Shown here: piece by piece, positions 3,939 to 42,479 of the stretch
Position numbering within the stretch: position 1 is the first letter of the stretch
Layout of the letters: each line of letters opens with the position of its first letter
IMG/VR virus record: IMGVR_UViG_2939127364_000002
Strand: one strand, 5' to 3'
DNA length: 42,479 nucleotides
Source: a virus
Lineage: Duplodnaviria > Heunggongvirae > Uroviricota > Caudoviricetes
Made by a program: the position numbers and the translations under genes
Notes under the pieces: model-generated
The model's database searches: none
Seen by the model: the letters and a program-made list of their open reading frames with translations, nothing else
What the model was told of the DNA's origin: nothing

Positions 3939-4121
3939 TCAGAATGGTTTGTATCCATGTTTAAAGGCGAAATCGTATGCCTCATCATTAGTGCTGAAGT
4001 ATTCATAATCAGCAAATCCATCACGATAAAACTTGCAGCACCAATGAGGCGGAATGCCATCCTCATGACCATAGTCTTGATGGAACACATCCTCGACGAT
4101 GATATTTTCATCTTTTCCCAT
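3939..4121 (-). CDS. Hypothetical small acidic protein (60 aa)
   Basis: MGKDENIIVEDVFHQDYGHEDGIPPHWCCKFYRDGFADYEYF...; GAGGTGA RBS 4 nt upstream of ATG; rich in Asp/Glu and aromatics. Confidence 0.55.
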   Translation of the reverse strand: MGKDENIIVEDVFHQDYGHEDGIPPHWCCKFYRDGFADYEYFSTNDEAYDFAFKHGYKPF

Positions 4122-4183
4122 ATATCACCTCAAATAAGTGGTTTGCTGCCAAAACAATGAACCATCCGGAAATTCCAGATAGT

Positions 4184-4411
4184 TCATAATTCACTCTTCA
4201 ATACTTCCAGCTTACTAATCGCCGAAAGATATCCGCGCTGATAGGGCATCATCATTCCTTCGAGCTTGCCACTTCTTAACTCCTCCCTGAGCAATTGTAT
4301 TGCTTGATCAATAACCTCTGCCTTAGCGTCCTTTATGGCTTGCTTGCGGGGCTTTGCTTTCTGCTTTGGCAGATTTCTCAAGCATGATGGAATGTATGTC
4401 TGATTCATCAC
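4184..4411 (-). CDS. Hypothetical early protein (75 aa) immediately downstream of N
   Basis: Track ORF abutting the N stop codon; no family recognised. Confidence 0.5.
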   Translation of the reverse strand: MMNQTYIPSCLRNLPKQKAKPRKQAIKDAKAEVIDQAIQLLREELRSGKLEGMMMPYQRGYLSAISKLEVLKSEL

Positions 4412-4774
4412 TTACCTGGCTGTCAGTTGTTTTGATTTCCGGTATCCTGCCGCGTAAATGGCTACGTTTGGAAGACATACACCAGTTTCTGGTTGCTTAT
4501 GTCCAAACTCATTCGCGTACACAATGGCTGCTCTCTCCAGATTGCGTCTGTATTCTTTCTGTTGCCAGATCACGTCCTGTGCCATGAACTTAATTGGCTT
4601 AGCGTCTTCTATGCGCTCAGGCGTTTCGTGAGTACCTTTAGCCTGAATCTGCGCTCTGCTTAGAGTAGGGCGGTGTAATACTTCTGAGCTTGCCGTAATC
4701 TCATTCTGGAGCGCTGCACGACGCTCACGACGACGACCTGATGCTGAGCCATTGAAAGCTGTTCTGCGTGTCAT
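4412..4774 (-). CDS. N: N-like transcription antiterminator
   Basis: Arginine-rich N-terminus ...GRRRERRAALQ... resembles the lambda N arginine-rich motif; first gene left of the oL region; AGGAGG 7 nt upstream of ATG. Confidence 0.65.
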   Translation of the reverse strand: MTRRTAFNGSASGRRRERRAALQNEITASSEVLHRPTLSRAQIQAKGTHETPERIEDAKPIKFMAQDVIWQQKEYRRNLERAAIVYANEFGHKQPETGVCLPNVAIYAAGYRKSKQLTAR

Positions 4775-4877
4775 AGTGACCTCCTGATGAACTTTGGTGA
4801 TGCAATGGCCGGTGCTTATCTTCGGCTTGCCTCAACGGGCTGCATTTCATCGCATCCCAAAGTTCACTTTGGTTATT

Positions 4878-4891
4878 AGGCTTTTCAGCCT
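4878..4891 (-). promoter_or_regulatory. Candidate nutL boxB-like hairpin
   Basis: On the leftward transcript: CTACG then AGGCU-GAAA-AGCCU; same design as the hairpin at 7461..7474. Confidence 0.4.
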
Positions 4892-4961
4892 CGTAGATTC
4901 ATCTCTGAATCGTTGTATATTCACCGCCCTGGTGAGTAGTGCGTCCTGCTGATGGGTAAAC

Positions 4962-5005
4962 TTTATCGAAATGATAAATCAATGGCAATAGCAAAATGAT
5001 AAATT
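4962..5005. promoter_or_regulatory. oL/pL operator region
   Basis: Two copies of ATGATAAAT (4972..4980, 4996..5004) plus TTTATCG at 4962..4968; the same motif recurs at oR. Confidence 0.5.
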
Positions 5006-5181
5006 CCTTTGGTTTTCAAATATCGTATTGATTCTTATGGTGTTTTATTTTGTTGTAGGAATCCGACAGGATAAATAAAGAGATTTGAGGGAGATCTGGA
5101 TTGCGTGGTTTAGTGAGTTGTATCTGTTTATTTTTCAACAAATACAATTGGTTATGTGTTTTTAGGTGGGGGGATCGTGAG

Positions 5182-5209
5182 GCAAAGAAAACCCGGCTCT
5201 GTGGCCGGG
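5182..5209 (-). terminator. Rho-independent terminator closing the cI operon
   Basis: Minus-strand hairpin cccggc-(6 nt loop)-gccggg followed by TTTTCTTTG, directly after the stop at 5218. Confidence 0.6.
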
Positions 5210-5217
5210 TTAATGCG

Positions 5218-5838
5218 TTAATGCTGGGGAGTGATTTTTTTGTTGTCTGTTGGCTGGGTATTTTGTGGCGGCGCTTGCAAAGTGGAAGGCTGTTGCAAAG
5301 GTGCGTGGTCTGACTTTAAAGCTGATACCAGCCCGGGAATCGCAACTATTACAGCGATAATGACACTAAAAATGGCTAATCGTATAGAAATACCCGACTG
5401 AACACCACTAATTGCGGTATTAACCCCTGTTATTTGTCCTTGAATTCCTTCGAATCTCCCATTAATTGCTTTTATATCGCCAGCAGCGCTATCCATCTTT
5501 CCATCGATCTTGGACGATAGAGAGTTTATGGCTGCATTAAGTGATGCAAATTGGACATTAACGCTTTCACGAGATAGAGCCATGTCAGCCCTAATGGAAG
5601 AAGCAATAGACTCCATCTCTGCTTTATTAGCAGCTAAGCGAGCATCAAGTTCCTCTCTGCTGATCGTTCCCACTTCTTCCTCCGTTTGTGGCGGTTTTAT
5701 GTAATTATTTTGCACCTTGGTGGGAGAATTATCAAATTCAGCCTCAAAATAGGAACCGCCAACAACCTTCAACCTCCGGCTTTCAGATATGTTGGTGTCT
5801 TGCTTTCCATGATTATTTAAATTGCTGTCGTCACTCAT
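5218..5838 (-). CDS. Membrane-anchored coiled-coil protein of unknown function (206 aa), distal gene of the cI operon
   Basis: Polar N-terminus, heptad-like central region, single hydrophobic segment IRLAIFSVIIAVIVAIPGLVSAL near the C-terminus, Pro/Gln-rich tail; ATGA overlap with the upstream gene. Confidence 0.6.
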   Translation of the reverse strand: MSDDSNLNNHGKQDTNISESRRLKVVGGSYFEAEFDNSPTKVQNNYIKPPQTEEEVGTISREELDARLAANKAEMESIASSIRADMALSRESVNVQFASLNAAINSLSSKIDGKMDSAAGDIKAINGRFEGIQGQITGVNTAISGVQSGISIRLAIFSVIIAVIVAIPGLVSALKSDHAPLQQPSTLQAPPQNTQPTDNKKITPQH

Positions 5839-6269
5839 AATAGCTCTACGGTGAAAAATGATTCATTTTTATGAAGTTCATTTTTAGGGTCTTCATTATC
5901 CTGCAATATCCCTATAACACTATACAGCCCTTTAGCTGGGACCCTAATTTCTTTCAATGTTACTATTACCTGTCCGCCAACCCCTGTTTCAAAATGGCTA
6001 TCTTTCGTATCGATGAAAAGTGAAACTGATTCCGAAGAGCCGTCAGGGAATTGAATTTCCTCACCTTTTTTTATAATTAGGTGCGCGGGGATTACCATAA
6101 TACCCAAATTATATCTTGAATTTGGTTTCAACCCGATCATACCAACCCTGAAATCAATTGATAGCCGCGCAGGAAATTCATTGCATGTAAAATTAAGCGT
6201 CGGTTGGTTGGGTTCTTCGCTGCTATCAAATGGGGTTATAAAAGATATTCTTTCTAAATTAAGTGCCAT
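5835..6269 (-). CDS. Hypothetical soluble protein (about 144 aa) between cI and the membrane protein
   Basis: Start placed at ATG 6269 (MALNLERISF...) with AGGAG 5 nt upstream; track start 6323 has no good RBS; no family recognised. Confidence 0.55.
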   Translation of the reverse strand: MALNLERISFITPFDSSEEPNQPTLNFTCNEFPARLSIDFRVGMIGLKPNSRYNLGIMVIPAHLIIKKGEEIQFPDGSSESVSLFIDTKDSHFETGVGGQVIVTLKEIRVPAKGLYSVIGILQDNEDPKNELHKNESFFTVELL

Positions 6270-6370
6270 AAATTCTCCTGCATCGCTGTATGCTCTACGA
6301 GCATCTCGGCGACTTATCATCACCCAAACGTCTCTTCAGGCCACTGGCTACCAGCTATGTGACGATGAAG

Positions 6371-7075
6371 TCACGAATTTTTCAGCCACTCCCTTGCCTC
6401 GATGTCATCCAGATGGCGAGATTGCTTCAGAATACCAGCCACATACTCCACCTTTGCTACTTGATGATAAGGCAACGTTATAGGCCTGTGGTCCTGGTTA
6501 ATGCTTGTAAATTGGTATTCTCCATCTCTGTCATAGCCAAGAACCTTAATCATGTTGTGTCCTTCAACGGTTCTGACAAACACCTCATCACCCGGGAATA
6601 CTTTGGTGTTAGGCTCAATGAGTACATATTCTCCTGATTTTATTCTGGGCCACATGCTGTCTCCTTTCACACGAAGACCAAAGGCATCTGGATCATCGCT
6701 ATAAATTTTGAGCCACCCATCGCGCTCTTCGGTCATCTCGATGGCACCATCAACACCAAGAATTGCCTCACCAACCACGCGCACTAACCCTTTTCTTACC
6801 TGACCGACAAAAGTTAAAGAATCTGAGCATGATGCAATTGGTGTTACATCATGCACCAAATCAAGCCACCCATTAGGTAACCCAAGTGCGGCTTCAAATT
6901 TTCTTGCTAGTTTATCCCCTATGTTTCGAGTGCTTTTTTCACCGGAGACTTGCGTGAGTTGAGAAGGGCTAACCCCAAGCTTATCGGCAAAGCTTGCATT
7001 AGTGTTACCCGCGATTTTTTTATGCTCATCTAGCAAAAACGCTAGATTTGATTTGCGAATATCTTTGTTTTCCAT
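6371..7075 (-). CDS. cI: CI-type prophage repressor (HTH plus S24 LexA-like autopeptidase domain)
   Basis: N-terminal HTH ...SFADKLGVSPSQLTQV...; C-terminal ...GDSMWP... serine-lysine dyad signature; divergent from cro across the operator region. Confidence 0.9.
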   Translation of the reverse strand: MENKDIRKSNLAFLLDEHKKIAGNTNASFADKLGVSPSQLTQVSGEKSTRNIGDKLARKFEAALGLPNGWLDLVHDVTPIASCSDSLTFVGQVRKGLVRVVGEAILGVDGAIEMTEERDGWLKIYSDDPDAFGLRVKGDSMWPRIKSGEYVLIEPNTKVFPGDEVFVRTVEGHNMIKVLGYDRDGEYQFTSINQDHRPITLPYHQVAKVEYVAGILKQSRHLDDIEAREWLKNS

Positions 7076-7100
7076 CCCACAATTTTCCCTCTATTTAGCA

Positions 7101-7180
7101 AATGGATAAATACGCAATATGATAAATTTACATTGCGGTTGATTTATCAAAATGGTAAAGTTATTCTGTATGATAAACGG
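7101..7180. promoter_or_regulatory. oR/pRM/pR operator region
   Basis: TGATAAA at 7120..7126 and 7171..7177, inverted TTTATCA at 7143..7149, GGATAAA at 7104..7110; lies between divergent cI and cro. Confidence 0.55.
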
Positions 7181-7188
7181 AGGCACTA

Positions 7189-7422
7189 ATGAGTAATGAA
7201 CTACTACGCTGGCGAAAAGAGGCTTCTAGTGAGGAATGGAAGCGACTCGCCGCATTAGCGAAAACTTCAGTTGGCTATCTTGACCAGATTGCATATGGAT
7301 TTCGAAGAGCTTCCCCTGATAAAGCGAATGCAATCGAAGAAGCTACTCGTAATTTCACGGGTTATAAACCTGTGAAAAAGGAAAACCTGGTGTTCGTATC
7401 GCGTAGAGCATCGGCAGCATAA
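7189..7422 (+). CDS. cro: Cro-like repressor (77 aa)
   Basis: Small basic protein, first rightward gene after the operators; GGAGG 6 nt upstream of ATG. Confidence 0.75.
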   Translation: MSNELLRWRKEASSEEWKRLAALAKTSVGYLDQIAYGFRRASPDKANAIEEATRNFTGYKPVKKENLVFVSRRASAA

Positions 7423-7460
7423 GTAACACCGCTATTTTCACAATGGACATTCGTCCTACG

Positions 7461-7474
7461 TCGCTGAAAAGCGA
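7461..7474 (+). promoter_or_regulatory. Candidate nutR boxB-like hairpin
   Basis: CTACG then UCGCU-GAAA-AGCGA between cro and cII; a second hairpin atgcgt/acgcat follows at 7505..7520. Confidence 0.4.
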
Positions 7475-7558
7475 GCCCCAAGATATCTGACCAACTAAGG
7501 CCATATGCGTTTCCACGCATACCTTTCAACTAACTATTCACTATTGGAAAATTAACAA

Positions 7559-7855
7559 ATGACACAAGCAAGTTACAGCAAGCCAACACAGCGAGAAATT
7601 GATCGCGCTGAAACTGATTTACTCATCAACCTGTCAACGCTTACCCAGCGCGGTCTGGCAAAGATGATTGGCTGTCATGAATCGAAGATAAGCAGAACGG
7701 ACTGGAGATTTATTGCTTCGGTCTTGTGTGCTTTCGGAATGGCATCAGACATCAGTCCGATTAGCAGGGCTTTTAAGTATGCGCTTGATGAAATCACAAA
7801 GAAAAAATCCCCGGCCGCCACCGAGGATTTTAAGCAAATTGATATGCAATTCTGA
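7559..7855 (+). CDS. cII: CII-like transcriptional activator
   Basis: HTH ...LTQRGLAKMIGCHESKISR...; C-terminus KKKSPAATEDFKQIDMQF parallels lambda CII KKRPAATERSEQIQMEF. Confidence 0.8.
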   Translation: MTQASYSKPTQREIDRAETDLLINLSTLTQRGLAKMIGCHESKISRTDWRFIASVLCAFGMASDISPISRAFKYALDEITKKKSPAATEDFKQIDMQF

Positions 7856-7887
7856 GGGAATTACTGGATCAATCCACAGGAGTAATT

Positions 7888-36555: not shown

Positions 36556-37578
36556 ATGGCAGTAAAAATTTCAGGTGTACTGAAAGACGGCACAGGAAAA
36601 CCGGTACAGAACTGCACAATCCAGCTGAAAGCAAAACGTAACAGCACCACGGTGGTGGTGAACACGCTGGCCTCAGAAAATCCGGATGAAGCCGGGCGTT
36701 ACAGCATGGACGTTGAGTACGGTCAGTACAGCGTTATTCTGTTGGTGGAAGGATTCCCGCCGTCACATGCCGGGACCATCACCGTGTATGAAGATTCCCG
36801 ACCCGGTACGCTGAATGATTTTCTCGGTGCCATGACGGAGGATGATGCCCGTCCGGAGGCTCTGCGGCGTTTTGAGGCGATGGTGGAAGAAGTTGCCCGC
36901 CAGGCATCGGAGGCATCGCGGAATGCCACCGCCGCATGGCAGGCATCTGAACAGGCGCAGACATCAGCAGGTCAGGCATCGGAAAGCGCCACGGCAGCAG
37001 TGAATGCAGCCGGAGCGGCAGAAGCATCAGCCACACAGGCAGCCTCATCCGCAGCATCTGCAACCAATGCGGCAAATAGCGCTTCTGCTGCAAATACTGC
37101 AAAAACCGGCGCAGAAGCTGCAAGAGATGCTGCAAATACTGCAAAAACCGGCGCAGAAGCTGCAAGAGATGCTGCAAATACTGCAAAAACCGGCGCAGAA
37201 GCTGCAAGAGATGCAGCTCTGGATGCCCAAACTGCTGCTGAATTAGCTGAAGCAAATGCAAAAATTTCTGAAACAAATGCAGCTGAGAGTAAGCGATTAG
37301 CAGAAGCAGCGATAGATGTGGCAAACTCATCTGCAGGAATATATCAGGACACCACATCTGGTTTGGCGGGAACGGCAACCGGAGGTTATTTTTCGGTGCC
37401 GTCACCCCTGGATGACGAGGTGCTGATTTTGTATCGGAATGACGCCGGAATTGCTACTGAAGTTAAGAGATACCCGAGCGCGGCGGGGGTTGAAAACACG
37501 CGCGTATCGATGATAGGGGTGGCGGCCAGTCTGGTGCTGACACAATCAATTATTGCGGCGCATCACGCGTTTCTATGA
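36556..37578 (+). CDS. stf: Side tail fibre protein, proximal part (lambda Stf N-terminal domain)
   Basis: MAVKISGVLKDGTGKPVQNCTIQLKAKRNSTTVVVNT... matches the lambda Stf N-terminus; contains three perfect 42-bp tandem repeats. Confidence 0.8.
   Translation: MAVKISGVLKDGTGKPVQNCTIQLKAKRNSTTVVVNTLASENPDEAGRYSMDVEYGQYSVILLVEGFPPSHAGTITVYEDSRPGTLNDFLGAMTEDDARPEALRRFEAMVEEVARQASEASRNATAAWQASEQAQTSAGQASESATAAVNAAGAAEASATQAASSAASATNAANSASAANTAKTGAEAARDAANTAKTGAEAARDAANTAKTGAEAARDAALDAQTAAELAEANAKISETNAAESKRLAEAAIDVANSSAGIYQDTTSGLAGTATGGYFSVPSPLDDEVLILYRNDAGIATEVKRYPSAAGVENTRVSMIGVAASLVLTQSIIAAHHAFL
37087..37212 (+). repeat. Three perfect tandem 42-bp repeats inside stf (14-aa unit AANTAKTGAEAARD)
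   Basis: Identical units starting at 37087, 37129 and 37171. Confidence 0.9.
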
Positions 37579-37594
37579 CAATGAGGAAACTGAA

Positions 37595-38914
37595 ATGAGC
37601 GTAGAAACAGAACTAGCAAAACTGACGACAGCAACAGCCGCGCTACTGGAGTCGGTGAATGTAAACAAAGCGGCGCTGGATGCAGCAGTCATAGCGGCAA
37701 ATGCAGCAGAAGCAAAGGCCACCGAACAGGCTGGCGTGTCAACAACCAAAGCGGCCGAGGCAGTAGCCGCCGCGCAAGATGCGTTAAATCGGGCTCAAGC
37801 TGCGTTGGATTCAGCGGCCACGGCAGCAGCGCAAGCTGCCGCAGCCACAGCGGTTGCGACAGCGAATTTAGAAACCGCACTACCAGCCAGCGCATACATT
37901 AAAGATGCTAACCGTTACGCCGTCGAGCGCGCGTCAGGCGGGCGTCAAACCGTGCTGTATGATGATCTAGGCAATCCAAGCGTGATGAATATCATCCCAA
38001 TTTTTCGTTACGAGGATCTCGGCTACAGCGAGGACATGGGAACCGGGGTAGTCAGCTGCTTTGATGTTGGCACTGGCACCAACAAAAGCGAGATTTTTAT
38101 CGGTGCATTTCAGTCATCATTGGTCGGCAGTCGCGCAGTGTCATTGCCGCGTACAGGCCCGGCGACATTCGTAAACTTCGATACAGCAAAAGGCTACTGC
38201 GCAAACAAAGGAGCTGGCTGGCATCTGATGACAATGCACGAGTGGGCAGCAATTTCGCTGTGGTGCATGGCTAATGGCTTCGAGCCGCGCGGAAACACGA
38301 ACTTCGGACGCGCACATGATCGCTACGTAGAGCGAGGTCGCCGCATGGATGGCGGACTGCCGGGCGATACCGCCGGAACACCGCGCGTGCATGCGGGATC
38401 AGGGCCGGATGCGTGGCGGCACAATAATTCGCCGTGGGGAATTAGTGATTTAGTCGGCAACGTATGGGAATGGCTAGACGGATTCAAGTTGCAAGATGGA
38501 CAAATCATTGCCAGTACATTTAACACGCAAGCTGAAGCAAGTTGGGCTGCACAAGCCGCCTATTTCGATGCAACGCAGACCACCGGCGGTGCGCCGCGCC
38601 TGTCTGATGCAGTAGTCAATCGCCTGGGAGCAATCGGCGATAACACGACCGACGGATACTCAGCAAGCGGAAATTTCGACGTTATGGAAAAAACAGGCAC
38701 ATATGTCAGCAATCAGCTGCTGAAGCGTCTATTGGTCGAGCCATCGACAGTGCTGCCGAAAGGTCGCGTATATATGCGAAATTTTGGCGAGCGGCTCCCG
38801 TATCGTGGCGGCGCTTGGGACTACGGCATCAATGCCGGCCTCGCCGCGCTCGCTTGCATCGCTTCGCGCGACTTTGCGCGCACCAGCATCGGGTTCCGCC
38901 TCGCTTTTGCGTGA
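37595..38914 (+). CDS. Distal tail fibre protein with C-terminal FGE-sulfatase (SUMF1)-like domain
   Basis: Ala-rich N-terminal region; C-terminal ...GWHLMTMHEWAAI...GNVWEWLDGF...RGGAWDYG...SIGFRLAFA matches formylglycine-generating-enzyme family motifs; GAGGA RBS before ATG 37595. Confidence 0.65.
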   Translation: MSVETELAKLTTATAALLESVNVNKAALDAAVIAANAAEAKATEQAGVSTTKAAEAVAAAQDALNRAQAALDSAATAAAQAAAATAVATANLETALPASAYIKDANRYAVERASGGRQTVLYDDLGNPSVMNIIPIFRYEDLGYSEDMGTGVVSCFDVGTGTNKSEIFIGAFQSSLVGSRAVSLPRTGPATFVNFDTAKGYCANKGAGWHLMTMHEWAAISLWCMANGFEPRGNTNFGRAHDRYVERGRRMDGGLPGDTAGTPRVHAGSGPDAWRHNNSPWGISDLVGNVWEWLDGFKLQDGQIIASTFNTQAEASWAAQAAYFDATQTTGGAPRLSDAVVNRLGAIGDNTTDGYSASGNFDVMEKTGTYVSNQLLKRLLVEPSTVLPKGRVYMRNFGERLPYRGGAWDYGINAGLAALACIASRDFARTSIGFRLAFA

Positions 38915-38958
38915 CCTGATGTTGTGTTTTCTGATGGCGCCACGACAGTGGCGCTTTG

Positions 38959-39081
38959 CCTGGAGGCTGTCGCATGAATGAGTTAATCATCGAGCAAAAA
39001 GTAAGGGAGATGATCTTGTATGGCTACATCGCACTGCGGCAACTGCCAAGAGCTAACACATACAGACTGAGAAATCATTAT
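38959..39081 (+). CDS. Possible small protein (40 aa)
   Basis: MNELIIEQKVREMILYGYIALRQLPRANTYRLRNHYSQNP with GGAGG 8 nt upstream; not in the track. Confidence 0.25.
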
Positions 39082-39111
39082 TCTCAGAACCCATGACCAA
39101 AGGAGCTAAAA

Positions 39112-39492
39112 ATGACAAAAACATATCTGCACGCCGGCATCGCGCACGCTGATACATCAGAAGAATACATGATGGAGCTAGGCATCGACGCCGACACCAG
39201 AGCAGCAATCATGAGCCAAATTGACTTTGAAACAGCGCAGGATGCAGTAGCAGCAAAAAAACTGCGTGATGCCGCCGTAGCTGCCATCAAAGTAACTGTA
39301 AGTGGCAAAGTTTTCGATGGAGACGAGGTCGCGCAGGGGCGCATGGCGAGAGCGGTGGCAGCAGCTGAAAGCGCGACCATCACCACATATCAATGGAAAC
39401 TTGCAGACAACAGCGTCGCTACAGTGTCGCTGGATGAGCTAAAGCAGGCGCTGGCGTTGGCATTCCAAGCTCAAAGCGAATTATGGGTATAG
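39112..39492 (+). CDS. Hypothetical protein downstream of the tail fibres (possible fibre accessory protein)
   Basis: 126-aa track ORF with AAAGGAG RBS; family not confidently recognised. Confidence 0.45.
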   Translation: MTKTYLHAGIAHADTSEEYMMELGIDADTRAAIMSQIDFETAQDAVAAKKLRDAAVAAIKVTVSGKVFDGDEVAQGRMARAVAAAESATITTYQWKLADNSVATVSLDELKQALALAFQAQSELWV

Positions 39493-40077
39493 GCGATCTG
39501 CAACTGATTGCACCCATTGGGGAGATAATAAATGATATACAGAACCATGTAAACGGCGCTCGCAACATTTTAGCGGCGGGGCACGCCGTACTTGCCTGTG
39601 GAGGGACGGTGCAGTCAGACCGCCCGTTGAAGCAGGAACCAGACGCTGAGCAATCAGCCGTCACCCACTAATGGGAATCCCCCTCCTGAGTCACGAAGTG
39701 CGAAGGTGGGGGAGGATGTCAATCTGGTGCTGCTGTATCAACTCGCATCAGCAGTATCCGGTATTTCTTTCACTCGCTTAGAGCGGTGGTTTCTTCCTCC
39801 GTCGCAATACCTGCATCAACAGCATCCTGACGCCGGTCAATCTCTGAGTCTGCCTGCGCTCGTAAATGAACGTTTACGAAAATGAATATCCTCCACAGCG
39901 TAATCAAGACGTAACTGTGGCGGGCATTGAAAATCTTTACTCACTCACTAACCAGAATTCAGCCTCTTCAAACATTTCCTGAACAGTACGGCTTATCTGT
40001 TCTTTCTCATGCTTGCTGGCGTCAGTGTTGATCGCCGGCAGTGTCATCATCGGTTTGCAAGGCTTTGCGCTGCTTTT

Positions 40078-41235
40078 CTATGACACCTTCTCATCAAGCC
40101 AATCCGCCCACCACTGCATCATTTCTCTGCGCTTATCGAGATACTGAGCATGGTTGTAAATTCCACGTACAGATCCGCCGTTGGCATGTGCCAGTTGCAC
40201 TTCAATGGCGTCGGCAGGCCATTCGTGCTCGTTCATAATCGTGCTGAATTCATGCCTGAATCCGTGACCGCTTTCCAGACCTTCATAGCCGATTTGTTTG
40301 ATCACAAGCAATACCGCGTTCTCGCAGATTGGCTTCTTCTTATCGTTGCGCCCGGCAAAAACAAACTCTGAGACTGGTTTGGTGATTGAGCTTAGCGTAG
40401 TGAGAAGTTCAACCACCTGGTCTGACATCGGGACCACATGAATTTTGCGTCCCTTCATCACACTGGCGTCGATGGTGATAATCCTGTTTTCAAAATCGAC
40501 GTTCTTCCATAGCATGGAACGAAGCTCTTTCGTTCTTAGGGCTGTATAACGTAAAACTTTTGTCGCAATGAGCGATACGATACTTCCTGAAAATGTTGCC
40601 AGTGCTTTGTTGAATGCAGGGATCTGGTCTGCTGGAAGGAACGGGAAGTTCTTCTTGCGGTATCCCTTCATGGCGTCAGCAAGGTCAGGTGCCGGGTTAT
40701 ATTTAGCCCTACCAGTGACAATAGCGTAACGGAAAACCTCGCCGCATCTTCTGCGGGCTTTGTTGGCTCGCTCCATTGCACCGCGATCTTCAAATCTGCG
40801 GATTACTTCCAGCAGTTGCATCGGCTCAATATCCTGAATTTCAAGGCCGCCGATGATGGGTAAAATGTCGTCATCAAACATTTTTGCAAGTTCATTTGCA
40901 TAGCCTACTGACCAGACTTGCTTCTTGTGCTCGTACCATTCCTTGTAAATGGCGCTAAAGGAATTGTTGTTAGACGAAGTCTTTTTCGCTTTTACCGGAT
41001 CGATACCAACCGAGATGTCTTTCCTCGCGGTCCATGCTTTATCCCTTGCCTCCTGCAAAGTCATAAGCGGATATTTTCCGACGGTCAGGATTTTCTCCTT
41101 ACCGTCAATCTTGTAGCGAAGCTGCCATACCTTTTTCCCGGATACAGGAACATAAAGGTACAGGCCATTACCATCGAGAAGGCGGTATGGTTTTTCTTTC
41201 GGCTTTGCTGCTTCAATCTGCTTAACGGTGAGCAT
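40078..41235 (-). CDS. intS: Tyrosine integrase, IntS-like
   Basis: MLTVKQIEAAKPKEKPYRLLDGNGLYLYV... recognised as the CPS-53/KplE1 integrase; start placed at ATG 41235 rather than track start 41271; adjacent to argW. Confidence 0.9.
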   Translation of the reverse strand: MLTVKQIEAAKPKEKPYRLLDGNGLYLYVPVSGKKVWQLRYKIDGKEKILTVGKYPLMTLQEARDKAWTARKDISVGIDPVKAKKTSSNNNSFSAIYKEWYEHKKQVWSVGYANELAKMFDDDILPIIGGLEIQDIEPMQLLEVIRRFEDRGAMERANKARRRCGEVFRYAIVTGRAKYNPAPDLADAMKGYRKKNFPFLPADQIPAFNKALATFSGSIVSLIATKVLRYTALRTKELRSMLWKNVDFENRIITIDASVMKGRKIHVVPMSDQVVELLTTLSSITKPVSEFVFAGRNDKKKPICENAVLLVIKQIGYEGLESGHGFRHEFSTIMNEHEWPADAIEVQLAHANGGSVRGIYNHAQYLDKRREMMQWWADWLDEKVS

Positions 41236-41281
41236 GGGTAAAAATCCGGTGGGTAAAATTATTTTATCCACTTTTTACCCG
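41236..41281. promoter_or_regulatory. Cluster of GGGTAAAA / TTTTACCC 8-mers upstream of intS (candidate recombination-protein binding sites)
   Basis: GGGTAAAA at 41236..41243 and 41251..41258, inverted TTTTACCC at 41273..41280. Confidence 0.35.
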
Positions 41282-41396
41282 TCATGGAGTGCGGCTGTCA
41301 ACGATCTGACGCGAACCATGACGAACCGTGAATATACGGAAGGCTTGATATTCAGGGGATTTTGCGGACTGGTACGGATGGGAGCGAACTGATAAA

Positions 41397-41471
41397 TGGT
41401 GTCCCCTGCAGGAATCGAACCTGCAATTAGCCCTTAGGAGGGGCTCGTTATATCCATTTAACTAAGAGGAC
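41397..41471 (-). tRNA. argW: tRNA-Arg (anticodon CCU)
   Basis: 75-nt cloverleaf GTCCTCTTAGTTAAATGGATATAACGAGCCCCTCCTAAGGGCTAATTGCAGGTTCGATTCCTGCAGGGGACACCA with anticodon CCT and encoded CCA. Confidence 0.9.
41411..41426. repeat. att core copy within the argW T-arm
   Basis: Exact 16-bp match to 221..236. Confidence 0.6.
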
Positions 41472-41546
41472 AATGCGGCATGAGTATACCCGCTAATGGA
41501 GTGCGGGGTAAGTACGCTGCCGCTCGATTGCTTAAACCCTCGCCAT

Positions 41547-42479
41547 TTATGCCGGGTTTTTATAATTTTTCTTAATGTTTTCCGCACGTTCTGCTTTTTG
41601 GCGTGCTTCTGCTTTACGCTTATTGCTCATGTCGTTACGAATCTGTGCATGACTCATTAACGCGAAGATAAAGGTGCCGCCGCAGATGTTCCCCGCTAAA
41701 GTAGGTAGTGCGAAGGGCCAGATGAAATCGCTCCAGTGCAGCGTACCGTTAAACACCAGATAGAGGATTTCAACAGAACCGACCACGATATGGGTGGTGT
41801 CACCCAGGGCAATAAGCCAGGTCATCAATATAATCACCACAATCTTTGCCGCACCCGCTGCAGGAAACATCCAAACCATAGTGGCGATCAGCCAGCCGGA
41901 AATGATCGCGTTGGCAAACATCTCGCTGGGGGTGTTTTTCATCACATCCATGCCGATTTTGACAAATGCATCGCGAGTTTCTTCATTGAAGATAGGCATA
42001 TATTCAAATGCCCACGCCGCAATACCTGTCCCGAGAATATTACCCAGCAGCACGACGCCCCATAACCGTATAAGTAAGCCGACGTTGCTCATTGTCGGTT
42101 TTTGCATGACGGGTAGTACCGCAGTCACGGTATTTTCGGTAAATAATTGCTGGCGGGCCATAATGACGATAATAAAACCAAAGGTATAACCGAGATTCTC
42201 CAGCAAGAAGCTGCCCGGCACACCTTCCAGTTCGACTTGAAATATCCCTTTTGCCAGTAACGAAGCGCCCATCGACAGACCCGCCGCAATGGCTGACCAC
42301 AGTAGCGCCACTGCGTCGCGTTCCAGCTCTTTTTCACCATCCTGGCGGATATGCTCATGAATTGCCATCGCCCGGGAGGGGAGTCGGTCTTCATCTATTT
42401 CTATTTTTTTGCCGCGCTCTTTTTCTTCGCTCTCAACTTCAATTTCGTCGCTGTGTTGATCAATTTTGTCGTTGTCCAT
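41547..42479 (-). CDS. yfdC: Inner-membrane formate/nitrite-transporter-family protein
   Basis: 310-aa ORF MDNDKIDQHSDEIEVESEEKERGKKIEIDEDR... recognised as YfdC, the gene next to argW in E. coli; its start codon is the last 3 bases of the window. Confidence 0.85.
   Translation of the reverse strand: MDNDKIDQHSDEIEVESEEKERGKKIEIDEDRLPSRAMAIHEHIRQDGEKELERDAVALLWSAIAAGLSMGASLLAKGIFQVELEGVPGSFLLENLGYTFGFIIVIMARQQLFTENTVTAVLPVMQKPTMSNVGLLIRLWGVVLLGNILGTGIAAWAFEYMPIFNEETRDAFVKIGMDVMKNTPSEMFANAIISGWLIATMVWMFPAAGAAKIVVIILMTWLIALGDTTHIVVGSVEILYLVFNGTLHWSDFIWPFALPTLAGNICGGTFIFALMSHAQIRNDMSNKRKAEARQKAERAENIKKNYKNPA

Follow-up and report, generated by a model that had tools for sequence, protein, structure and literature searches.

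The target proteins of diversity-generating retroelements (DGRs) fall into several classes, the largest of which is the formylglycine-generating enzyme (FGE)-sulfatase type, with 19% of 372 DGRs (Wu et al., PMC5758913). TaqVP (PDB 5VF4), the variable protein of a DGR of Thermus aquaticus, shows this type of C-type lectin (CLec) fold, a fold that is regarded in the description of its structure as a general ligand-binding fold (PMC6328139), and the Bordetella phage BPP-1 places Mtd at the tips of its tail fibres (PMC5758913). DGRs also possess conserved and functionally required hairpins, located 4-34 bp past the variable region (VR), with GC-rich stems of 7-10 bp and GRNA loops of 4 nucleotides (nt); phage VHML is among those in which such a hairpin was shown, and in BPP-1 the initiation of mutagenic homing (IMH) element together with the hairpin is enough to target a heterologous gene (Guo et al., PMC3240598). 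We describe here a 42,479-nt stretch of viral DNA, IMG/VR record IMGVR_UViG_2939127364_000002 (the window, by which the entire stretch is meant), that is 100% identical to Escherichia coli CP53, an isolate from pig faeces. A gene for a 439-residue protein lies at the late-operon end of its lambdoid prophage. The best explanation for this gene, to which we assign a probability of about 0.85, is that it is an orphaned DGR target, encoding the distal, receptor-binding subunit of the prophage side tail fibre, from which the DGR cassette has been deleted and in which the VR is consequently frozen.

The gene is an intact open reading frame (ORF) with exactly the limits given in Table 1. Its ATG at 37595 is preceded by a ribosome-binding site (GAGGA, 7 nt upstream) and follows the stop codon of the preceding fibre gene by 16 nt. 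The order in the late operon is J (1,160 residues), lom, the gene of a 340-residue phage_tail_N protein, the 439-residue gene and a DUF4376 gene, and the late region of the window is apparently complete. In CP53 the product is named by PGAP as "SUMF1/EgtB/PvdO family nonheme iron enzyme". The initial annotation of the sequence had considered it a distal tail fibre protein with an FGE-sulfatase/SUMF1-like end, and had missed its nature as a DGR variable protein.

The relationship to DGRs is most evident in the last 41 codons. Orthologous loci (ET5, L007, L016 and others) served as the source of the template repeat (TR) with which the window VR was compared. The alignment of the VR with this 120-nt TR is free of gaps and contains 20 differences, which affect 15 of the 26 TR adenines versus 5 of the 94 other bases (Fisher p = 1.5e-8). 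In VRs located beside an intact TR, 9-17 adenine and 1-3 non-adenine mismatches were counted, and the TR is identical across several lineages. Given the p value and the neighbouring genes annotated as Avd and reverse transcriptase (RT) in the orthologous loci, an artefact of alignment is very unlikely.

Variation among relatives is confined to the same codons. Among 69 close homologues, all of them 439 residues long, the Shannon entropy reaches ~3 bits at residues 407, 409, 410, 413, 420, 422, 423, 427, 429 and 431 and lower at 403, 412, 428, 430 and 432, while its mean over residues 101-398 is 0.20. The hypervariable codons extend from 403 to 432 (38801-38890), and the variable positions coincide exactly with the adenine-holding TR codons AAT/AAC, TAT, AGC, ACG and ATC. 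A total of 1.6e14 protein combinations can be encoded by the 15 diversifiable codons, and no AAY codon can become a stop. In the window protein, these positions are occupied by Y403, A407, D409, Y410, I412, N413, A420, I422, A423, F427, A428, R429, T430, S431 and I432. The three motifs that had been taken as hallmarks of the FGE fold, GNVWEW (residues 288-293), RGGAW (404-408) and GFR (433-435), are all present, but two of the three lie within the VR. The alanine of RGGAW (residue 407) is encoded by a diversified AAT codon, at which 15 different residues occur among the 69 homologues, while GFR is part of the adenine-free VR 3' end and is kept in every allele.

The TR itself differs between some lineages. 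The TR of L013-L015 (5736-5855) departs from that of ET5 (contig L001) in the codons for residues 410 (AAC to GGC) and 431 (AAC to TTC); it contains four adenines fewer, and two diversifiable positions have therefore been lost. Non-adenine mismatches number five in the window VR and three each in EC6 and L010, versus one to three in intact loci. Drift of orphaned VRs was considered on the basis of these counts and rejected, as the patterns at codons 412, 423 and 430 point to TRs that differ between lineages. The residues found at these codons suggest polymorphism of the TR, with extra adenines in the TRs of other lineages.

The gene is carried by 3 of 5,426 complete E. coli genomes. In one of these, ET5, the module comprises the target, avd, TR, RT and DUF4376 in this order, with database annotations of Avd and reverse transcriptase, and its VR and TR form a 120-nt repeat of 90% identity. 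The five-part module recurs, with bAvd and RVT_1 Pfam matches, in eight further contig sets from E. coli, Klebsiella and metagenomes (L007-9, L013-16, L017, L019-20 and L022). The CP53 prophage is attached at the argW site (tRNA-Arg(CCU)/intS/yfdC), which is shared by several of the intact DGR-carrying elements (L007, L013, L017 and L019). In blastn alignments, window 37170-39053 corresponds to ET5 4036-5919 and window 39052-39517 to ET5 7403-7869. The 1,483 bp in between (ET5 5920-7402) are missing from the window; they span the greater part of avd, the complete TR and codons 1 to ~320 of the RT gene. In the window, the avd remnant is fused directly to the end of the RT gene. No further RT-like sequence was detected in the window by tblastn, no second VR copy or TR was found there, and the remainder of the CP53 genome gave no TR or RT match at the sensitivity of blastn. 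The locus is not a complete DGR, since it has no RT and no TR and its avd is truncated. A scan of species-representative genomes yielded only three distant marine gammaproteobacterial loci, two with avd and RT and one without, and no close relatives.

The signals of a DGR target site have survived the deletion. The VR ends in an adenine-free, GC-rich segment, immediately past which the sequence of the VR parts from that of the TR, in the manner of IMH and IMH*. The hairpin downstream conforms to the published target-site rules (PMC3240598), and its GACA loop agrees with the GRNA consensus. The window gene would thus be an orphan, yet formally competent, target. Together with the fold described below, the C-terminal position of the variable residues, the adenine bias between VR and TR and the hypervariability at TR-adenine codons, these cis elements complete the set of features of a DGR variable protein.

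A history of the locus can be proposed on this basis. The Ala-rich helical segment at the N-terminus of the protein presumably extends the shaft of the upstream Stf-N protein, to which it would attach as a trimer; a TaqVP-like module of ~340 residues follows, in which the last 41 residues would form the ligand-binding surface. In the ancestral element, avd, the TR and the RT gene would have stood directly downstream of the target. TR RNA would have been copied with adenine-specific errors, and the cDNA would have replaced the VR, guided by the adenine-free VR 3' end and the GRNA-loop hairpin, to give up to ~1.6e14 variants of the tip. With the 1,483-bp deletion, between short imperfect repeats, the bulk of avd, the TR and almost the entire RT gene were then lost, so that a single VR allele was frozen.

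Table 1. Features of the window, of the intact ET5 module (contig L001) and of the cassette-less junctions; slashes mark the junction.
Feature	Location	Strand	Basis or sequence
Proximal side-tail-fibre protein, 340 residues	36556..37578	+	Pfam phage_tail_N, E = 1.9e-72; phrog tail fibre families
Distal fibre protein, probable DGR variable (target) protein, 439 residues	37595..38914	+	Pfam, PHROGs, homology to 5VF4, model, dN/dS
Pfam FGE-sulfatase stretch, residues 187-298	38153..38488	+	Profile match; GNVWEW at 38456-38473
VR, last 41 codons of the 439-residue gene	38790..38909	+	Homologous to 120-nt TR of intact DGRs
Adenine-free, GC-rich VR 3' end, IMH-like	38889..38905	+	TCGGGTTCCGCCTCGCT, same in VR and TR
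Hairpin/cruciform, 7-bp GC-rich stem GCGCCAC/GTGGCGC, 4-nt loop GACA	38937..38954	+	Computed fold; starts 27 nt past VR
avd remnant, first ~26 codons, 80 nt	38974..39053	+	tblastn to ET5 Avd residues 1-32, 87.5%; blastn
Deletion junction	39053..39054	.	Alignment to ET5
RT-gene 3' remnant, last ~100 nt	39054..39152	+	tblastn to RT residues 328-354, 93% (~27 codons, 39072-39152)
DUF4376 gene, 126 residues	39112..39492	+	Pfam DUF4376, E = 1.9e-7; phrog tail families
ET5 target gene	L001 4461-5780		
ET5 avd	L001 5840-6172		
ET5 TR	L001 6196-6315		
ET5 reverse transcriptase	L001 6443-7504		
ET5 DUF4376	L001 7464-7844		
Junction, window	39043-39063		CTGCCAAGAGC / T / AACACATAC
Junction, EC6 and metagenome contig L025 (identical)			CTGCCA / GTCACGCAAACAC
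Junction, L018			CTGCCAAGAGCG / CAAACAC
Junction, L010-12			CTGCCAAGAGCG / AACATATAC

Loss of the cassette was compared among the cassette-less alleles of the window, L003, L010-12, L018, L021 and L025. The left flank of intact loci (...CTGCCAAGAGCGGAGCG...) and the right flank (...CATGCCAGTCACGCAAACACATAC...) together form the imperfect repeat TGCCA-N4-CG. In five cassette-less lineages the breakpoints fall in this repeat, within ~8 bp of each other, and produce four junction sequences, while a sixth lineage with another backbone (L021) has a different deletion, in which avd has left no remnant and the RT gene a short one. The metagenome scan added one cassette-less contig (L025), and the junction was not found in the scan of IMG/VR. 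Each cassette-less lineage has a VR of its own, including EC6 and L025 with their identical junction. The gene body of the window is ~93% identical to those of the other deleted alleles, and its DUF4376 gene is 95-96% identical to deleted alleles versus 97% to intact loci; in pairwise flank identities, in which recombination blurs the distinction between single and repeated deletion, the allele of the window stands apart from the remaining deleted ones. In a single assembly (GCA_034535795.1; L010, L011 and L012), three copies of an identical cassette-less module, with the same VR and junction, occupy three genomic contexts, which suggests recent exchange between co-resident prophages.

The pattern of junctions and VRs suggests either recurrent loss of the cassette or a change of the VR after its loss. 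Three accounts would accommodate it, namely recurrent deletion at microhomology, a small number of old deletions with subsequent patch recombination, and diversification in trans. Cassette loss may even be a recurrent and possibly selected switch that locks receptor specificity, with orphans that retain their homing signals and so stay open to renewed diversification in trans by a co-resident DGR-positive relative; this idea derives from the clustered breakpoints in TGCCA-N4-CG, the separate deletion of L021 and the lineage-specific VRs, and we consider it speculative and unlikely.

It is quite unlikely that the VR of the window is not frozen at all, but is still diversified in trans by a related DGR-positive phage, cassette loss being a cheap "hitch-hiker" state. 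The adenine-free VR end and the hairpin are intact, and such elements suffice on a heterologous gene in BPP-1 (PMC3240598); the TR is identical in several lineages, and the VRs all differ among the cassette-less ones, even where EC6 and L025 share a junction. Against this, no cognate TR or RT was found by blastn in the CP53 genome, patch recombination, or recurrent microhomology deletion in ancestors that were already diversified, explains the differing VRs equally well, the window allele has no special relationship to the other deleted alleles, and the extra non-adenine changes in its VR are such as drift would give.

The assignment of an orphaned target to the distal end of the side tail fibre draws on gene order and on single-chain fusions. 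The 340-residue product of the upstream gene, encoded past J and lom as in lambda, consists of an N-terminal domain of the lambda Stf type, a helical, Ala-rich shaft and a C-terminal part of ~80 residues, the last 24 of which (VSMIGVAASLVLTQSIIAAHHAFL) are unusually hydrophobic. Three perfect tandem repeats of 42 nt (37086-37211; 14-residue unit AANTAKTGAEAARD) are found in the shaft. These repeats are bordered on both sides by degenerate copies, and the repeat number differs in ET5. Elsewhere, an Stf-type N-terminal domain and the 439-residue module occur in one chain: in P0069 (597 residues), a fusion, the first 146 residues are 48% identical to the upstream protein and the protein is 89% identical to residues 43-439 of the distal one, and further fusions to phage_tail_N (PF08400) include P0079 and P0090. 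Homologues adjoin P2-type baseplate genes in VHML and L022, and phage homologues are annotated as "antireceptor" or "virion structural protein". Because the two parts form a single chain elsewhere, the context supports well the distal tail fibre placement proposed in the initial annotation, and the 439-residue protein is likely the distal end of the side tail fibre and its receptor-binding part.

In CP53 and EC6, PGAP designates the Stf-N gene a partial pseudogene "missing C-terminus" (36556-37332). The 340-residue ORF is intact, its stop position matches that of the intact 386-residue ET5 gene, and L018 and L019 each have a called gene of 340 residues, which makes the pseudogene label a probable mis-call. 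This label bears on the possibility that the locus is a decaying relic of a defective prophage with no functional fibre, for which the deletion of the DGR cassette and the fragments of tail-fibre-assembly and DinI-like genes at 39.5-40.1 kb might also speak. We regard this as distinctly improbable: the full 439-residue ORF has a good ribosome-binding site, the ORF upstream is unbroken and shares its end point with intact orthologues, the lambdoid late region is apparently complete, and the ratio of nonsynonymous to synonymous substitution rates (dN/dS) of the scaffold (residues 100-398) is 0.13-0.21 versus close relatives, which indicates that the scaffold is under purifying selection.

Several points weigh against the interpretation as an orphaned fibre-tip target. 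The TR, the RT and a full avd are missing from the window, and the relationship to DGRs therefore rests on orthologous loci. Four of the non-adenine mismatches fall in the interior of the window VR, versus 0-2 in VRs beside an intact TR, and they imply that a TR of the ET5 type was not exactly the last template of this lineage. TaqVP is a monomer of unknown function and not a phage protein (PMC6328139), and the fibre would lack an anchor if the pseudogene label on the upstream gene were right.

The fold of the protein was examined at the levels of sequence and model. The Pfam FGE-sulfatase profile PF03781 matches with 28.6 bits (E = 1.5e-6), above the curated cut-off of 23.3, although the match is partial: residues 187-298 correspond to positions 90-194 of 255 and stop short of the catalytic end. 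PHROGs assigns the protein to phrog_2889, of unknown function (E = 9e-119), and no NCBIfam family model matches it. The only strong sequence match among solved structures is TaqVP (E = 2e-59). An AlphaFold model built from an alignment with 86 diverse homologues has a mean confidence (pLDDT) of 92.8; residues 1-95 are Ala-rich and helical, and residues 110-439 form a globular part with pLDDT of about 96-99, which superposes on TaqVP at 1.7 A. The fold matches in BFVD are mostly annotated as phage tail fibres, and the family comprises 1,147 clusters at the 50% identity level (E <= 1e-3). In this model, the C-terminal part (residues ~100-439, the TaqVP-like module) ends in the FGE-subtype CLec fold, so that both the profile search and the structural comparison bear out an FGE-sulfatase/SUMF1-type domain. 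The superposition and the published description of TaqVP would place the variable residues at the solvent-exposed surface.

The module moves between phage backbones. With 36550-39500 as the query, 4,795 E. coli genomes match, most of them solely by the initial ~370 nt of the fibre gene upstream. The module occurs at 82-84% nucleotide identity (86% at the amino-acid level) in L022, where it follows P2-type baseplate genes, and in L021, where its context is Tail_spike_N, and remoter homologues are found in VHML, phiARM81mr and Pseudoalteromonas phages. These occurrences, with the rarity of the gene in E. coli, uphold the initial proposal of a horizontally swapped tip; its argument from codon choice is weak. 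The 439-residue gene does depart in synonymous codon usage from the late genes taken as a pool (z = 9.1), but J (7.4) and the upstream fibre gene (6.8) depart as well, and its G+C content at third codon positions (0.547) lies within the range of the window (0.25-0.69). Since the deviation is no greater than that of several neighbours, it is not diagnostic of transfer. The most deviant late gene is that of the tape measure (26750-29956; z = 17.6), another mark of mosaicism, with no connection to the fibre tip.

The FGE-sulfatase match and fold, the presence of the module in several backbones together with its rarity in E. coli, the codon usage unlike that of the pooled late genes and the lack of an RT in the window would all be compatible with a static, lectin-like glycan-binding tip that was acquired horizontally and has no history of hypermutation, which is how the initial annotation taken alone would be read. 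We consider this highly improbable, and as a complete account it is contradicted by the avd and RT remnants directly downstream, by the adenine-specific differences between the last 120 nt and the TR of orthologous DGRs, and by population variation that is limited to TR-adenine codons. A specificity for sugars cannot be derived from the FGE subtype of the fold (PMC6328139), the CLec fold being a general ligand-binding one, and the suggestion of a glycan-recognising module is not supported.

Human FGE Ser333 and Cys336 map to the variable residues D348 and N351 of TaqVP, and Cys341 lies near variable V354 (PMC6328139). Through the alignment with TaqVP, the equivalents in the window protein are A407, Y410 and N413, all of them hypervariable, and the only cysteines of the protein (155, 202, 224 and 421) lie at none of these sites. 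An active enzyme of the FGE/EgtB/PvdO type, as implied by the PGAP name and compatible with the Pfam match, thus merits almost no credence, given that this match ends at profile position 194 of 255, that the catalytic cysteines are not conserved and that FGE-family enzymes are matched only with E > 0.1. Because the catalytic-equivalent positions are variable sites with Ala, Tyr and Asn, the protein is not an FGE enzyme, and we take it to be a ligand binder.

The DUF4376 gene, which may encode a fibre assembly factor, closes the module in all enterobacterial relatives whose contig extends that far (64-100% amino-acid identity). In intact loci there is a 41-nt overlap between its start and the RT stop; the gene and its ribosome-binding site were retained through every deletion, and it is absent from VHML, phiARM81mr and the marine loci. 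The region from DUF4376 to intS (39500-40077) contains only fragments, annotated in CP53 as a tail-fibre-assembly pseudogene and a DinI-like pseudogene, which we regard as scars from earlier module replacements. The end of the prophage (40078-42479) carries intS on the minus strand, tRNA-Arg(CCU) (41397-41471) and host yfdC.

These observations have practical consequences. Applied to the members from enterobacterial prophages, which would be retroelement-written tips of tail fibres, the name "SUMF1/EgtB/PvdO family nonheme iron enzyme" misleads. For the prediction of host range, the determinants would be ~15 residues among the last 41, and hypermutation would no longer be possible in CP53. A possible model system is offered by the intact elements that lambda-like phages of E. 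coli and Klebsiella carry (ET5, L007, L013, L016, L017 and L019). One group reports that Bordetella DGR cDNA is not integrated by the recombination pathways of E. coli itself (bioRxiv 10.1101/2025.03.24.644984), and for this reason a lambdoid DGR native to the species would make a tractable model and possibly a tool. The window illustrates how DGRs decay in evolution, and the cost of the cassette is a question raised by its repeated loss.

Compared with known systems, the window protein is, in function as in descent, a DGR variable protein of the TaqVP/VHML-ORF35 type that would be used as BPP-1 uses Mtd. TaqVP is chromosomal and monomeric, has no fibre-type N-terminal extension and retains its own DGR, whereas the window protein has a helical N-terminus of 95 residues, is encoded in a phage tail-fibre operon and has lost avd, TR and RT. 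The phage homologues VHML ORF35, phiARM81mr p57 and the Pseudoalteromonas ACA1 "antireceptor" are 45-58% identical over residues ~100-439. In VHML and phiARM81mr the Avd-like and RT genes follow, so that the cassette is kept, with no DUF4376 gene. VHML ORF35 sits behind tail or baseplate genes, and it and its relatives differ from the window protein in their N-terminal attachment parts and in belonging to a P2-like myovirus rather than a lambdoid siphovirus. More distant are BPP-1 Mtd (PDB 1YU0; 13% identity), whose DGR is intact and active where that of the window is deleted, and Treponema denticola TvpA (PDB 2Y3C; ~20% identity), a bacterial surface lipoprotein and not a phage fibre. The relation to human FGE/SUMF1, SUMF2, EgtB and PvdO is marginal, with the catalytic Ser-Cys-Cys replaced by hypervariable residues.

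The likeness to lambda Stf resides in the N-terminal domain of the upstream protein and in its position behind J and lom. In the window, two proteins make up the fibre, the distal one has no relation to the C-terminus of Stf, and the place of tfa is taken by the DUF4376 gene, with only tfa fragments further downstream. Literature searches turned up no account of a DGR native to E. coli or of a lambdoid one, nor of a DGR on a side tail fibre, although elements of the ET5 type are already auto-annotated in RefSeq. Specific to the window are the two-protein, lambda-like side tail fibre in E. coli, the accompanying DUF4376 gene and the orphaned state of the target.

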